The notes under the pieces are model-generated. The model was not told where the DNA came from. It made no database searches and worked only from the letters and a program-made list of their open reading frames with translations. The position numbers were made by a program, and so were the translations under genes. From an uncultured virus (IMG/VR IMGVR_UViG_2061766007_004178) (taxonomy: Duplodnaviria; Heunggongvirae; Uroviricota; Caudoviricetes): 64,000 nucleotides of DNA. The stretch lies in the IMG/VR virus record IMGVR_UViG_2061766007_004178. The stretch is one strand, 5' to 3'. Shown here piece after piece: positions 45,600-61,418 of the stretch (position 1 is the stretch's first letter; the number at the start of each line of letters is the position of its first letter).

Positions 45600-47318
45600 C
45601 TACAAATTGACGATAATCGATCTGAGTTCGTTGGCCAATGAGTCCGAGATGTAGTTCTCTTTGCCGTCGACGACGTAGTCAGACAGCTCTTTCTTGGTTT
45701 CGACGATGTACTTCACCCTTTCGTCGATGGTATCCTTGCAGACGAGCACCGTCACGAAAGCAGGCCTGTCGTTGGTGATCCTCCAAATCCTGTCAGTGGA
45801 TTGAGAGAAGCTCGCGTCTGTGTACGGCGTATCCAGGCAGATCATGTACGATGCGGCGTTCAGAGTGAAGCCGGTTCCCATCTTGCTGTGAGTGCACAGC
45901 ATGAGCTTAGGCTTCGGATCGCCTTGGAAGTAGTTGACGTTCTGCGTGATGACCTGCTCGCTCATATCGCCCGTGCATACGAGCGGATCGAATTCGGCGA
46001 GCATCGACTGCAGTTTATATATAGGCTCTTTGAACGATCCGAATATCACTACCTTCTCGCCTTGGGAAATCAGGTCGCGCGCTATCTCGGCGGCTCTGTC
46101 CAGTTTGCTGGACGCGATGTCTTGGGTCGTGAGTATGCTCGGGCTGACCGTGGCCTGACGCAATCTGGTGGTCAGAGCCAGTAAATTAGCGTTGTTGAGG
46201 TTTATCTTGTCTGCTTCGTCTTTGATCCCGGCTTTTATGGCCTCATAGAACTTGCGGTGCTGGTCGTTCATCTCGATGCACTCGTAGTTGATGTTCTTGG
46301 CGGGCATGTCGCTGCGCACCTGATCCAACGTGCGTCTGATGCTGCAGGTTCCAAGCTCCTCTCTGAGAAGCGGCAGGTTCTGATATGAGATTATCTCTGC
46401 GCCGTTGATCCCGCCTTTGACGCAGTATTGCTCTTTGAAGTGCGTCAGCGTGGCGTGATCGTTGTCGGTCCAGCTGAGCGGCAGATAGCAGGATACCGGG
46501 GAGTTCAGAAGCAGCGTGCCGGTCGCGGCGACTTTGTATTCAGCGTCGAGCTTCAGGAGGTTGTTCCCCTGAGCCGATTGCGACGTGAAGCGATGCGCCT
46601 CGTCGACCGCCATCAATCCGAATTTGTTCGGGTTCTTCGGCGATCTGAGCGCTTTGATGATGTCGTCGCTGCGCAGCGTAGCGGCGTTGATGACGACGAA
46701 GAACTCGTCTATCGGCTGCATGAGCCTCTCGGCGCGCGCTTTGATCGTCGCGTATGATATAGTGCCTTTGGAATTCACTTTCTCGCCGAGCACCATGACC
46801 CCTTCTCTGCTGAATTTCCGTATCTCGGATTTCCAGTTCTGCCTGAGCGAGTCGACGCCGCAGATTATCATGCAGTGATCTATGAGACCGCGTCTTTTGA
46901 GGGTCTCTGCGTATCCGATTATCTCTAATGTCTTGCCAAGGCCCATGCTGTCGAGCAGGAGCCATTTCTTGCGCCTTGGGTCCAAGCCGTAGTTTATGCC
47001 TGTGATTTGGTGATCGAACGGAGTGAACGAAAACGACCTGATTTCGTCGTCTGTCAGGCAGAACGTTTTCGGATCCGGCTCAGGCTCTTGCGAAGGCGGC
47101 AGCATTATGAGCTGCAGGCTGTCGTAGAAGCAGAGCCTGTCCAACGCGTCGCTCAATTCGTTCGAAGGGATCTCGAAGCATTGCTCGCTCTTAAGGTACG
47201 CTTTGCTGGTGAAGCTGTTGCAGACATCCCAGACCTCTTTGCTGTACGCGAAGCTGATGAGAAAGCTAGAGAGCCCGGAGAATTTCCTCGGAGGCGTTAC
47301 TTCTCTGATGTAGATCAT
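45600..47318 (-). CDS. SNF2-family helicase
   Basis: DSMGLGKT, VDEAH, ATGT, GTGFTLN, QSTDRIWRI. Confidence 0.9.
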   Translation of the reverse strand: MIYIREVTPPRKFSGLSSFLISFAYSKEVWDVCNSFTSKAYLKSEQCFEIPSNELSDALDRLCFYDSLQLIMLPPSQEPEPDPKTFCLTDDEIRSFSFTPFDHQITGINYGLDPRRKKWLLLDSMGLGKTLEIIGYAETLKRRGLIDHCMIICGVDSLRQNWKSEIRKFSREGVMVLGEKVNSKGTISYATIKARAERLMQPIDEFFVVINAATLRSDDIIKALRSPKNPNKFGLMAVDEAHRFTSQSAQGNNLLKLDAEYKVAATGTLLLNSPVSCYLPLSWTDNDHATLTHFKEQYCVKGGINGAEIISYQNLPLLREELGTCSIRRTLDQVRSDMPAKNINYECIEMNDQHRKFYEAIKAGIKDEADKINLNNANLLALTTRLRQATVSPSILTTQDIASSKLDRAAEIARDLISQGEKVVIFGSFKEPIYKLQSMLAEFDPLVCTGDMSEQVITQNVNYFQGDPKPKLMLCTHSKMGTGFTLNAASYMICLDTPYTDASFSQSTDRIWRITNDRPAFVTVLVCKDTIDERVKYIVETKKELSDYVVDGKENYISDSLANELRSIIVNL

Positions 47319-47356: not shown

Positions 47357-47688
47357 CTAGTCCAATAGGGATACTGACTGCTCTCCGAAATCCAATGTCT
47401 CGTCTTCTTTGCGCACTTTGAAGCTGACCGTCGGCTCGACTATGAACGATTTGCCGCAGTGGTCGCAGACGTATCTCTCCGGCTGGCATGGCTCGTTCTC
47501 TNNNNNNNNNNGTGGAAGATGACCGTCCAAGAGGCGCACGCGCTGAAGCTCTGGGCGACCGCNNNNNNNNNNTCTGGCTTGCCTTCTATCTGTCCCGGCA
47601 CGAATATCTCGCTGGCGACGTACTGAGCCCCGCAATGAGGGCAGGTGATTATGAGCCTCGCTCAGGCCTGTTGTTCGTTTTTCTCCAT
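47357..47688 (-). CDS. zinc-finger protein; TGA at codon 9 probably Trp; gapped
   Basis: AAGGAG RBS; MEKNEQQA*ARLIITCPHCG..CDHCGK. Confidence 0.6.
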
Positions 47689-47689
47689 T

Positions 47690-49240
47690 TCTGAAATCTC
47701 CTTGGTTCGAAATCCGAAATCATTCTGTTTTCGCACGCATATACGTATGCATGCGTCAGAGTATAGCTTTTAATATAAGCTATGTATATAAGCTATGCAT
47801 CTTAAGTTTAGACATAAGCTAAGCATCTTAAGCTTGGCTCTGTATCCTTAGCTTATAAACATCGCTGTTAAGCATATGCTGTAGAATGAAGTATTTAAAT
47901 AACGATCTATTATTTATGTGTTAATAAATCATTAAATTATTAAATCATTAAATTATTAAAAATCTGAATTTGGCCGTCAGGCCGTTTAGTTGTCGGAATT
48001 TGTATCAGACATCGCCGGTTTCACCGGCAGTCGACCGAGGTCGACATATTCAGAATGTCTGAAATCATCTTAATTCCGGCTCCATTTATATTATACAGTC
48101 TAAATGACTGTATTATAGGCGTTTTTTCGTAAATTTTTACAGAATTCTCCTCCCCCAGCTAATTATACGCCGTTTTTCCGCATTTGTAAATGACTTTTAT
48201 GCTGTCTTTCATATGACTATCTTGCTGCATTCGTAAAGTCTCTTATGCATGCATGTGCGCCTGCATGTTTTATGTGATTTTTTTCTAATACTTATTACTC
48301 ATAGCAAGTAATAATTATTACAAAAAAATCGCACAAAACGCGTTATGTCACGCATCGCGCGCAAGAATTTTGAGATCATTCTGTTTTTGTCAGCCTGTTT
48401 TTATACACGCATACGTATGCGTGACCGTATGCGGTATCACGCGCATTACGCGCAACTTCACGCGATACCGCGCGCCGTCATGCGCACGCACGATGAAAAC
48501 GATCTGTTTTGGACTTTTTGCAGAAAAATATCTGAAATCAGATGAATTCGCATCGTATAATATAACGTAGGCCGGATGAAGCCGCCTTAACCACAGGCCG
48601 GTCTGCACCCCTTTTCCGAAGGCATGTGGCTTCGAAAAAACCTGCGTTCCTAGACGTCCTCGATCAACACAGCGTCGATGGCGCGCAATCATTATTACCT
48701 CCTTTCTCAAGCCTTCGGAGATCACCTCCCAACGGACGTCGACTAGCCGCCATTTCCTCCTGCGGCCATCAGTCGGCGTCTTTTTGTTTTTTCCTGGGGT
48801 ACCTTGAAAAGTCAGCCAGAATCTGGCCAGGAAGCGCAGAAAGGCCATTCTGGCGAGAATCGCCCGTTTCCGCCGCTTTTTATATACAGAAATCGAAATC
48901 GTTCGAATTTGGCCCGTTTTCGCGAATATGAGCGCGCGCTCATGCACGTGACGCCCGAAAACGAAAACGCCTCTTTTTGGGGAAATCGGAAATGAGGCGG
49001 TTTCGCCCGCTTCTTATTACGCATGTGCGCGCATATGAAAACAGATCGTTTTCGGGAAAGGCTGAAAACGAAAACGCGTCTTTTTCGGCCGCCGATATAT
49101 GGATGAGAGAAAAACGGCTGAGAATATAGGCCGAAATCGGAATCGCCTCGTTTTCGGGCGCATATACGCACGCATATAAAGAAAAACCGTTTACATGATA
49201 AAACCTCCGCGCCATAATAGATAGGATATCGGAGGACATA
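47690..49240. other. 1.5 kb noncoding interval between divergent genes; possible replication origin/control region
   Basis: TAAGC/GCTTA repeats, tandem TAAATCATTAAATTAT, hairpins, purine-pyrimidine alternating tracts. Confidence 0.5.
48564..48792 (+). ncRNA. candidate structured small RNA with anti-Shine-Dalgarno loops
   Basis: CGTATAAT at 48554-48561, nested stems with G-U pairs, terminal hairpin plus T run, CCTCC tracts. Confidence 0.55.
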
Positions 49241-49241
49241 T

Positions 49242-49575
49242 ATGGACAAAGAGAAGTTCGACAAAATAAAAGAAGGCCTTGAGCGCAGGATCGCCAAGTG
49301 CGAGGAAAGGCTCAATGATATACATACAGGCGAAGACCTATGGAAGATGACCGTCCAAGAGGCGCACGCGCTGAAGCTCTGGGCGACCGCGGAGATGAGC
49401 AAGATGGACCAGATAGTCTGCACGGACCTATACCATATCGTGGGCATGGGGAAGCTGACCGCGTCTCAGACCAATACATTTCTGGGCCTCATGAGGAAAT
49501 ATATGGGATACAGGTCGGACGTCAAGTCGATCGCGTATAACCTGTCATTGGACAATCCGGCGAAGCTCCCGTACG
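49242..49575 (+). CDS. hypothetical protein, only clear plus-strand gene (3' end obscured by gap)
   Basis: TTTACA-17-CATAAT promoter, GGAGG RBS. Confidence 0.7.
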
Positions 49576-49673: not shown

Positions 49674-49706
49674 AAAGCGCCAGGCCTATATAGGCCTGGC
49701 TTTTTC
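49674..49706. terminator. bidirectional terminator between convergent genes
   Basis: GCCAGGCCTATATAGGCCTGGC flanked by A and T runs. Confidence 0.75.
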
Positions 49707-50077: not shown

Positions 50078-50316
50078 ATGCTTTTCCTATGCCTGAATAA
50101 TTTAGCGGTCCGGCGGCGGCCGTGCGTGCTGCCTAAGCATGCGTCGTCGGCTTTAACGTACGCGCGCACGCGAGCATGAGTATGAAAAAAGGCGGACCAA
50201 TTGAGCCGTGGGCGACCGACTGGCCTCCGGCGGGCTTGTCCAACCTTCAATTATTTTAGCATATCTGTTTTTTAATAATTTAATAAATCATTAAAATCTG
50301 CATTGACTGCGCCAGA

Positions 50317-61342: not shown

Positions 61343-61418
61343 TGGTGCTCCCAGGTGGATTCGAACCACCGACCGCACGATTATAAGTCGTGAGCTCTGA
61401 CCGCTGCGCTATGGGAGC
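61343..61418 (-). tRNA. tRNA-Ile, anticodon UAU, encoded CCA
   Basis: GCTCCCA acceptor stem, CACGA-CTTATAA-TCGTG anticodon arm, GGTTCGAATCC T arm, ACCA end, 76 nt. Confidence 0.95.

Follow-up and report, generated by a model that had tools for sequence, protein, structure and literature searches.

RNAIII of Staphylococcus aureus, 514 nt long and encoded on the chromosome, is a quorum-sensing effector as well as the message for a peptide, and one of its C-rich-loop hairpins is its terminator hairpin. Countertranscript RNAs (ctRNAs), such as those of the pMV158/pT181 type, and sar of phage P22 are short, end in a terminator, have loops complementary to a ribosome-binding site (RBS), and lie beside replication functions. 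The STAB-SD of Bacillus thuringiensis cry3A is a strong Shine–Dalgarno (SD) sequence that stabilizes its mRNA. The exceptionally strong SD of B. subtilis hbs is also described as an mRNA stabilizer (PMC5737220), and unpaired C-rich motifs of S. aureus and B. subtilis small RNAs (sRNAs), which have a 5′ hairpin and a terminator, bind the SD and block the initiation complex (PMC2790875). Here, we describe a unit at approximately 48567–48792 on the plus strand of IMG/VR record IMGVR_UViG_2061766007_004178, a stretch of 64,000 nucleotides that is called the window below. We favor, on balance, the reading that this unit is a gene for a phage sRNA with C/U-rich tracts that mask SD regions. That a conserved plus-strand RNA element exists here at all is likely; masking of the SD, proposed by analogy, is less so.

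Compared with RsaE/RoxS and the UCCC-motif sRNAs of Staphylococcus and Bacillus, the unit is similar in that it appears to be an orphan with a promoter, a 5′ hairpin, and a classical terminator of its own, from a Firmicute background in which SDs are used, and in having several unpaired C-rich motifs, which in the known sRNAs have been proposed or shown to bind the SD. In the window, such motifs are predicted to be unpaired. The tract in the terminator loop (tract 3; Table 1) is unpaired in the window and in three related phages alike (P = 0.99–1.0), and tract 1 reaches only 0–0.4 in the relatives. The terminator is found in all four sequences and the −10 box is conserved, with a poor −35 (CTGAAA at 18 nt). 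Unlike RsaE/RoxS, the unit is phage-encoded, about twice as long, and known here from sequence alone, and it carries CCUCC/CCUCU, identical to the 16S rRNA 3′ tail over 10 to 11 nt, not UCCC. As in RNAIII, a C-rich hairpin loop could serve as the SD-binding module, in this case the apical loop of the terminator, which is predicted to be exposed in four of four sequences; unlike RNAIII, the unit lacks coding capacity and has another genomic context. By analogy, the element would work like the C-rich sRNAs of the RsaE/RoxS and RNAIII type, and it appears to be a member of no described family. Rfam gave no match overlapping the element at the gathering score or at E values up to 10, and none in the relatives' loci. 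A literature search for phage-encoded anti-SD sRNAs returned no description of such an element, which is not proof of absence. To our knowledge, few trans-acting sRNAs of Firmicute-infecting phages have been described, and we know of none for rumen phages, for which no literature search was made.

Relatives were reached via the helicase encoded next to the unit. Homologs at 60–71% identity were aligned, and the alignment was used to fetch IMG/VR loci with their flanks, which yielded 21 close loci (helicase 51–64% identical) and two remote ones (22–23%). Direct DNA scans gave no match to the element with five patterns in IMG/VR, in two genome-contig pattern scans, or in phage and plasmid collections, and a metagenome scan with too loose a pattern gave at least 120 chance matches, none of them similar by blastn. 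A blastn comparison of the window's non-coding region with the 21 close loci recovered only the leader of a Zn-ribbon gene, an AT-rich tandem repeat, and a 16–19-nt palindromic motif, with no similarity across the sRNA span. A collinear unit in the same place and orientation was found in three of these loci, L124 (3127–3426), L134 (3149–3449), and L129 (3064–3318), whose helicases are 62–64% identical.

In the window and these three phages, tract 1 lies 1241–1380 nt upstream of the helicase start, on the strand opposite the helicase. The unit of each relative consists of TGTATAAT, a hairpin that begins 5–7 nt after the TATAAT, a variable middle, tract 1, a small hairpin, and a two-tier terminator. 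Tract 1 is an invariant 18-mer, GACAATTACCTCCTTTCA, in the three relatives, and the 13-nt core ATTACCTCCTTTC is identical in all four sequences. An equivalent of the 5′ hairpin is present in all three relatives, with a compensatory G–C to A–U change between UGAGGCG/CGCCUCA in L124 and UGAGGCA/UGCCUCA in L134. The small hairpin after tract 1 is capped by UUCG and has the stem GGGGC/GUCCC in L124 and CGGGU/ACCCG in L129. The terminator keeps its two-tier shape in four of four sequences (−22 to −24.5 kcal/mol; −24.5 in the window), although the letters of its stem differ wholly between lineages (GGACGUCGACU, GGCGACGAC, and AGCAGCAGU in the lower stem; GCCGC, GAGCC, and UCCGCC in the upper one). 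All four have a C/U-rich apical loop of 11–21 nt in which CCUCC or CACCUCUCUC occurs, and a U-rich tail that is present after the hairpin only when it is read in the plus orientation. An earlier note on this DNA, made from the letters alone, had proposed a plus-strand non-coding unit, which fits the conservation in related phages of the −10 box, the 5′ hairpin, the ACCTCCTTTC tract, and the U-tailed terminator.

A covariance model (R1) was built from L124 and L134 alone and searched against 165 kb. It recognized L129 with 34.1 bits (E = 1e-5), and its best match in the window was 48681–48790 on the plus strand (24.9 bits, E = 0.0016), all other matches having E values of at least 0.07. In the model alignment of the terminator, 98.2% of the cells pair, and 8 of 14 stem pairs are changed on both sides. 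The covariation score was 0.71, compared with 0.29 for shuffles (0 of 500 as high) and at most 0.30 for slid partners, a score that comes from four sequences, two of them near-identical, in an alignment fitted to the model. A hairpin acting as DNA would show the same covariation. The window, L124, L134, and L129 have in common a structure with compensatory changes and a conserved position and orientation. Based on synteny, the model match, and the compensatory changes, a promoter-to-terminator non-coding plus-strand RNA is the best supported reading of the unit, and its transcription is what we infer from the sequence. The family appears to be undescribed and common to related rumen-type phages.

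Shorter, AT-rich units occupy the same position in L139 and L141 (helicase 51–52% identical), each with a TATAAT, an enclosing stem, and two tracts (ACACCUCCUU and AUCCUCCUUUCU in L139, UUACCUCCUUUC and AUCCUCCUU in L141). We call these analogous, not homologous, because the models missed them. With a second model, R2, a search of 22 other loci added no clear member to the family: the R2 match in L146 was just the 18-mer as an RBS, and the one in L137 (6363–6483, E = 0.008) is a different hairpin on the helicase strand. The latter, U-tailed and located downstream of the helicase, has a large loop that contains CUUCCUCCUG, with AUCCUCCCUUUC before it. The loop sequence might follow the SD style of each phage: AGAGG is commoner than GGAGG in L124 and L134, whose loops read CCUCU, and a correspondence of this kind is also seen in the window, L139, and L141 but not in L129; the numbers are too small for a conclusion.

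The statistics within the window concern the tracts, their exposure, and the fold. Three CCTCC with gaps of 10–40 nt (within 63 nt) form the single such cluster on either strand of the window, and at least one such cluster arose in 3 of 100 dinucleotide shuffles. The earlier note had pointed out that tracts 1 and 2 resemble the 3′ end of 16S rRNA. Measured against a short motif of the 16S tail, this resemblance is borne out: the tracts at 48698 and 48725 have 11 and 10 nt of identity, the two longest among the 66 plus-strand CCTCC sites, and the other 64 have at most 8 nt. In the predicted plus-strand RNA, the three CCTCC pentamers are unpaired with P = 0.54, 0.93, and 0.99 for tracts 1 to 3, respectively. 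The product of 0.49 was reached by 2 of 150 shuffled-context controls (median 0.004). The plus-strand fold has an energy of −71.7 kcal/mol (z = −2.92; 1 of 200 shuffles as good), compared with a z score of −1.04 for the minus strand. In runs X3, X5, and X7, the region is present at about 91–96% identity; among the variants listed, the indels inside the sRNA are an A inserted after 48695 and the loss of one base in the T run at 48787, both in X3.

The motifs, the stems, the alternative pairing, and the terminal hairpin with its T run that had been reported earlier could all be read directly in the sequence (Table 1). Two 5′ folds compete, since a start at 48568 makes a nested fold similar to that of the earlier note optimal (−70.0 kcal/mol), whereas with a start at 48562 the earlier nested fold, when forced, has −50.7 kcal/mol as opposed to −71.7. 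The first 58 nt of the predicted RNA fold to −14.9 kcal/mol. The palindrome ahead of the −10 box has TCTGAAATC in common with repeat family D5.

Table 1. Coordinates of the proposed sRNA unit, its parts, and the nearest genes in the window.
Feature	Position	Strand	Remarks
Whole proposed small RNA	48567..48792	+	About 225 nt; sum of the parts plus covariance-model match
Near-perfect palindrome ATCTGAAATCAGAT	48530..48543		Occupies the expected −35 place; may bind a regulator
CGTATAAT	48554–48561	+	Read directly
−10 box TATAAT, then ATAA	48556..48561	+	Perfect −10
5′-terminal hairpin GUAGGCCGG...CCGGUCUGC	48567..48606	+	Flush with the presumed transcription start
Stem AACGTAGG/CCTGCGTT	48564–71/48641–48	+	Read directly
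Stem GAAGCC/GGCTTC	48578–83/48629–34	+	Read directly
Stem GCCTT/AAGGC	48585–89/48619–23	+	Read directly
Alternative pairing TCCGAAGGC/GCCTTCGGA	48615–23/48711–19	+	Read directly
Middle domain	48613..48723	+	Long-range closing stem UUCCGAAGGCAUG/CAAGCCUUCGGAG; nested alternative nearly equal in energy
Tract 1 CATTATTACCTCCTTTCT	48690..48707	+	Conserved core at 48694–48706
Tract 2 GATCACCTCC	48720–29; as GATCACCTCCC, 48720..48730	+	Single-stranded between middle domain and terminator
Two-tier terminator hairpin	48734..48781	+	Lower stem 11 bp, upper stem GCCGC/GCGGC
Terminal hairpin GACGTCGACT..GCCGC-loop-GCGGC..AGTCGGCGTC	48735–48780	+	Read directly
Tract 3, 11-nt apical loop of the terminator, CATTTCCTCCT	48751–48761	+	Read directly
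U tract TTTTTGTTTTTT, terminator tail	48781..48792	+	No T run after the hairpin on the opposite strand
SNF2-type helicase	45600–47318 (572-aa form)	−	Pfam and PHROG matches; left of the unit
Small Zn-ribbon ORF	Left of the unit, upstream of the helicase	−	
Plus-strand protein gene	49242 onward	+	Codon score +0.46; sole nearby plus-strand protein gene

Several observations, in addition to the limits on the covariation given above, weigh against this being an sRNA gene of the proposed kind. No transcript was observed; metatranscriptome run X20 contributed one 187-nt contig (47583–47769) and nothing over the sRNA, from which we draw no inference. There is no usable −35, and the candidate promoter, which shares only the −10 and the following ATAA with the phage's own promoter family, scores −4 with the phage promoter position weight matrix, compared with 25–53 for the 16 true promoters. 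The claim that G–U pairs favor the plus strand is only weakly true. In raw energy, the minus strand does as well as the plus strand or better (−77.6 versus −71.7 kcal/mol for minus versus plus; −21.8 versus −23.9 for the terminator hairpin). The whole region 47700–49240 is full of inverted repeats on both strands, and neighboring segments have z scores of −2 to −6. The middle domain is not conserved in detail in the relatives, whose long-range stem differs (AAACUGCC/GGCAGUUU). The window has three tracts, but the relatives carry two. Tract 2 has no counterpart in L124 and L129, L134 has GTCCTCT inside a hairpin, and the triple CCTCC cluster occurs in none of 20 upstream regions of relatives. 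Tract 1 is mostly paired in the relatives (P(unpaired) = 0.0, 0.11, and 0.40). The proposed anti-start-codon (CAT) parts are not conserved, the relatives reading GACAATTACC where the window has CATTATTACC. Last, target prediction yielded no specific target in the window, where no other site has a complementarity of at least 13 nt; the longest, 12 nt, is by estimate about what chance would give.

Further points of this kind concern the opposite strand. The tracts could be ribosome-binding sequences of the minus strand, either as the RBS of a small or 100-codon gene or as strong SDs that stabilize a minus-strand transcript in the manner of STAB-SD/hbs, and the plus-strand promoter and terminator would then be incidental. 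The coding-looking ORFs of the window nearly all lie on the minus strand, as do 66 of the 86 CCTCC/GGAGG sites by orientation. In the window, AGAAAGGAGGTAATAATG is an ideal RBS that, with a 5-nt spacer, opens 100 codons from 48692, and it resembles the initiation regions of the phage's early genes, AGAAAAGAGGTAAT. The longest open minus frame over 48340–49240, 207 codons, was reached in 3 of 1000 shuffles and is unexplained. The 18-mer itself occurs in 10 IMG/VR loci, three being the contigs of L124, L134, and L129 and seven belonging to other phages; in four of these seven (L146, L148, L151, and L153) its complement reads as an ordinary RBS with an ATG after it. By itself, the conserved 18-mer is no proof of a role as RNA. 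A very strong SD (10 Watson–Crick and 2 G–U pairs) shields the hbs mRNA of B. subtilis from RNase J1 (PMC5737220).

Several findings speak against this minus-strand reading. The ATG that follows the complement of tract 1 in the window is ATA in L124 and L134 and GTC in L129, and no ORF of at least 30 aa starts behind it in any of the three. Because neither ATG nor ORF is kept, the letters of the tract are not conserved for a protein. Judged by reading the sequences, a short minus-strand ORF that starts in the terminator loop encodes 29 aa in the window; it has 33 aa in L124, ends at 17 aa in L134, and is missing from L129. The earlier note had named the ORF from 48692, should it prove conserved and translated, as the finding that would overturn the sRNA; besides lacking conservation, this ORF has codon usage of a non-coding kind and no real homolog. 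With a codon score of −0.17 per codon, it ranks beneath each of the 89 other longest ORFs of that strand (median 0.447). In its 100-aa and 185-aa forms it had no match in a word-indexed search of 5.8 billion clusters and no Pfam or PHROG match, and phmmer against 1.84 billion representatives gave no true homolog, only three weak repeat-like matches (E about 1e-6) to short repeated stretches in proteins of 467–3500 aa. No phage-type promoter was found on the minus strand upstream of the tracts, and the next coding-like minus-strand gene, about 1 kb away, has a strong promoter of its own, the leftward promoter of the replication operon (48190–48162). In predicted minus-strand RNA, two of the three GGAGG are paired (P = 0.001–0.05 and 0.07–0.17), and the U tail suits the plus strand only. 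On present sequence evidence, the minus-strand ORF is rejected as an explanation, and we regard minus-strand ribosome-binding sequences of either kind as quite unlikely.

The comparison with described opposite-strand and leader systems points the same way. Like STAB-SD/hbs, the locus has an RNA tract complementary to the 16S 3′ end over 10–12 nt, longer than is found for ordinary genes here. Those elements precede a gene on the sense strand of a transcribed mRNA, whereas the minus strand here has no promoter, conserved ORF, or nearby gene and the terminator suits the plus strand; a stabilizer of the STAB-SD type is not indicated because promoter and gene are missing. The unit resembles P22 sar and the pMV158/pT181 ctRNAs as a putative short terminator-ended RNA, with loops complementary to an RBS, in a phage or replicon control region next to replication functions. 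These need a real gene on the opposite strand, whereas the opposite ORF here is neither conserved nor coding-like, and a cis-antisense role is not supported for lack of such a gene. A riboswitch or attenuator leader was likewise considered and rejected: the next plus-strand gene, at 49242, starts approximately 445 nt after the terminator and has its own phage-type promoter, a weaker copy at 49190–49218, and in runs X3 and X5 the homology does not reach that gene, stopping at about 49095.

The unit also has a divergent promoter region on one side and four GAAAACGAAAACGC-like repeats (48957–49157) on the other, and is next to the helicase operon. This layout, which recurs in L124 and L134, would suit a replication origin or control region in which a plus-strand terminator shields the iteron-like repeats on its right, together with inverted repeats acting as DNA, and in which the RNA has no role in trans. 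The abundance of inverted repeats on both strands and a second hairpin with a T run at 48824–48886 agree with this. An insulator, however, leaves unexplained an 18-nt tract identical in three phages whose flanks are beyond recognition by blastn, the identity of tracts 1 and 2 to the 16S tail, the large C/U-rich terminator loop in four of four sequences, and a −10 box and 5′ hairpin at a fixed distance. We consider an origin architecture of this type rather improbable as the explanation.

If the plus-strand unit is an sRNA gene, transcription would proceed away from the Zn-ribbon/helicase replication operon from a −10-dominated promoter and stop at the unit's own two-tier intrinsic terminator. 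Its C/U-rich tracts would copy the 16S rRNA 3′ tail, AUUACCUCCUUUC being nearly invariant and another tract being exposed in the apical loop of the terminator. The tracts may pair with purine-rich SD regions of mRNAs and thereby block 30S binding or change mRNA stability, an action that is suggested by the Firmicute precedent of C-rich sRNAs. Candidate targets would be early phage mRNAs, the divergent replication-operon transcript at its G-rich 5′ end, or host mRNAs. Duplex energies over 110 sites show that tract 1 behaves like the 16S tail (r = 0.85). These were calculated with short oligos, as RNAduplex with the full-length sRNA produced uninterpretable long-loop duplexes. A truly broad silencer of translation, as the earlier note had envisaged, seems unlikely because the phage's own genes depend on SD sites.

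A more local action is also conceivable, in which a real RNA pairs through its tracts with the G-rich start (GGGGGAGGAG) of the divergent replication-operon leader and tunes the stability or translation of the helicase operon, with no broad silencing. Among the 110 initiation-region-like sites, this leader is placed 6th for tract 1, 1st for tract 2, and 8th for tract 3 in short-oligo duplexes (−15.9, −16.6, and −15.1 kcal/mol, compared with means of −8 to −10), a ranking that is the only statistical control. A G-rich run (GGGGGG, GGGGAG, GGGGA, GGGAAA, or GGGGC) follows the TTTAC-N17-TATAAT leftward promoter in all seven phages that have one (three of the ten examined have no such promoter), and the sRNA and the leftward promoter keep their neighborhood in the relatives. 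The pairings, however, comprise 6–8 bp only, which is typical for any G-rich site, and the G run could itself serve as a promoter discriminator, or the true start could be downstream of it. We judge it unlikely that the action is confined to this leader, which, going by the predicted duplexes, may be followed as an sRNA target as a lead only.

The G-rich run in question, on the minus strand at 48161–48140, lies a few bases after the replication-operon promoter, with no start codon or ORF behind it in the window. Its equivalents in L124, L134, L129, L133, L139, and L141 read ATGGGGGG, ATGGGGAG, ATGGGGA, ATGGGAAA, or ATGGGGC. The G-rich run after the leftward promoter is apparently a conserved element.

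The tracts may, alternatively, mimic the 16S 3′ tail as a whole. The RNA would present a helix followed by GAUCACCUCC and the almost invariant ACCUCCUUUC and, made in quantity from the replication-control region, would compete with ribosomes for the SD and reprogram translation, with host shut-off or a switching off of the phage's own early genes as the outcome; or it could be a decoy for a host factor or nuclease that recognizes the 16S tail. This we regard as a rather unlikely variant.

The window is a phage-like contig that a run search places in bovine gut or rumen metagenomes. Its helicase has its best named relatives, at 31–34% identity, in phages of Bacillus, Streptococcus, and Clostridium, and its genes rely on SD sites; because of both, the host is probably a Firmicute. 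The unit is located in a gene-poor stretch of approximately 1.5 kb (about 47700–49240) without a coding-like ORF. An ESM Atlas look-up of the neighboring plus-strand protein gave scores that were all below 0.85, and a bidirectional terminator at 49679–49700 ends both its gene and a convergent minus-strand gene. The phage's own promoter family, TTTAC[A/G/T]-17-TATAAT, is sharply conserved in 16 intergenic copies. In fuller form it reads (A-rich)CG TTTAC[A/G/T]-17-TATAAT ATA, and the SD follows after about 15 nt; the 16 sites are on the minus strand, from 48190 down to 901, and precede many small early-type genes. The sole tRNA gene in the window is a tRNA-Ile with anticodon TAT (61343–61418, minus strand).

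Around the unit, several other elements were seen. To its left is an AT-rich palindrome with 33-nt arms (48267–48339). In the relative from run X3, its arms carry paired changes, such as 48288 A>T with 48318 T>A, and matching indels at 48290/48292 and 48320/48322; because of these paired changes, a hairpin or cruciform at this place seems to be under selection. Next to it, between the divergent promoters, is a GC-rich block (48349–48465) with several TCACGC/GCGTGA and a perfect 14-nt palindrome, CGCATACGTATGCG, at 48408–48421, which looks like an operator region. The 16–19-nt palindromic motif GAAAACGATCTGTTTT is found at 48495–48510 and inverted at 49038–49053, and exact copies of it are present in many related loci. 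Direct repeats of an iteron-like kind (GAAAACGAAAACGCNTCTTTTT, GAAATCGAAATCG, and similar ones) fill 48890–49160, after the terminator, and also occur downstream of the L124 and L134 units. Together, these repeats and the GAAAACGATCTGTTTT motif may form a replication origin or a protein-binding array. The segment at 48824–48886, on the plus strand about 40 nt past the terminator, is structured and followed by a T run and ATATA, and may act as a tandem terminator or be a small unit in its own right; a GTCACAGA...TCTGTGAC hairpin with a T run stands at the matching place in L124 and L134. An AT-rich tandem repeat with an 8-nt period (TTAATAAATCATTAAA...) is found at 47921–47960 and 50269–50295, and on both sides of the helicase in relatives. 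Its depth of 280 in run X5 marks it as a widespread repeated element of this phage group.

Some peculiarities of the Zn-ribbon ORF were also noted. An exact 50-nt copy of 49341–49390, from the 49242 gene, lies inside it at 47513–47562 and is bounded by 10 N on either side, which looks like a scaffolding or masking artifact; the window has 34 N runs in total. On the minus strand at 47688–47573, a 9-codon ORF (MEKNEQQA, with a TGA stop at 47664–47662) is in frame with the following CPHCG...CDHCG Zn-ribbon frame. This reading frame has no canonical start of its own, which read-through, a sequencing error, or an unusual start may explain.

The unit is compact, conserved, and fixed in place beside replication genes, and it carries a near-invariant copy of the sequence by which the ribosome recognizes mRNA, while the terminator loop always exposes, in this family, a tract related to the 16S tail. 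If blocking of RBSs is true, it would offer a testable case of phage control of translation at the level of RNA, and the unit could explain the timing of early-gene or replication-gene expression in such phages. Even with another mechanism, it would represent a new RNA family supported by covariation.

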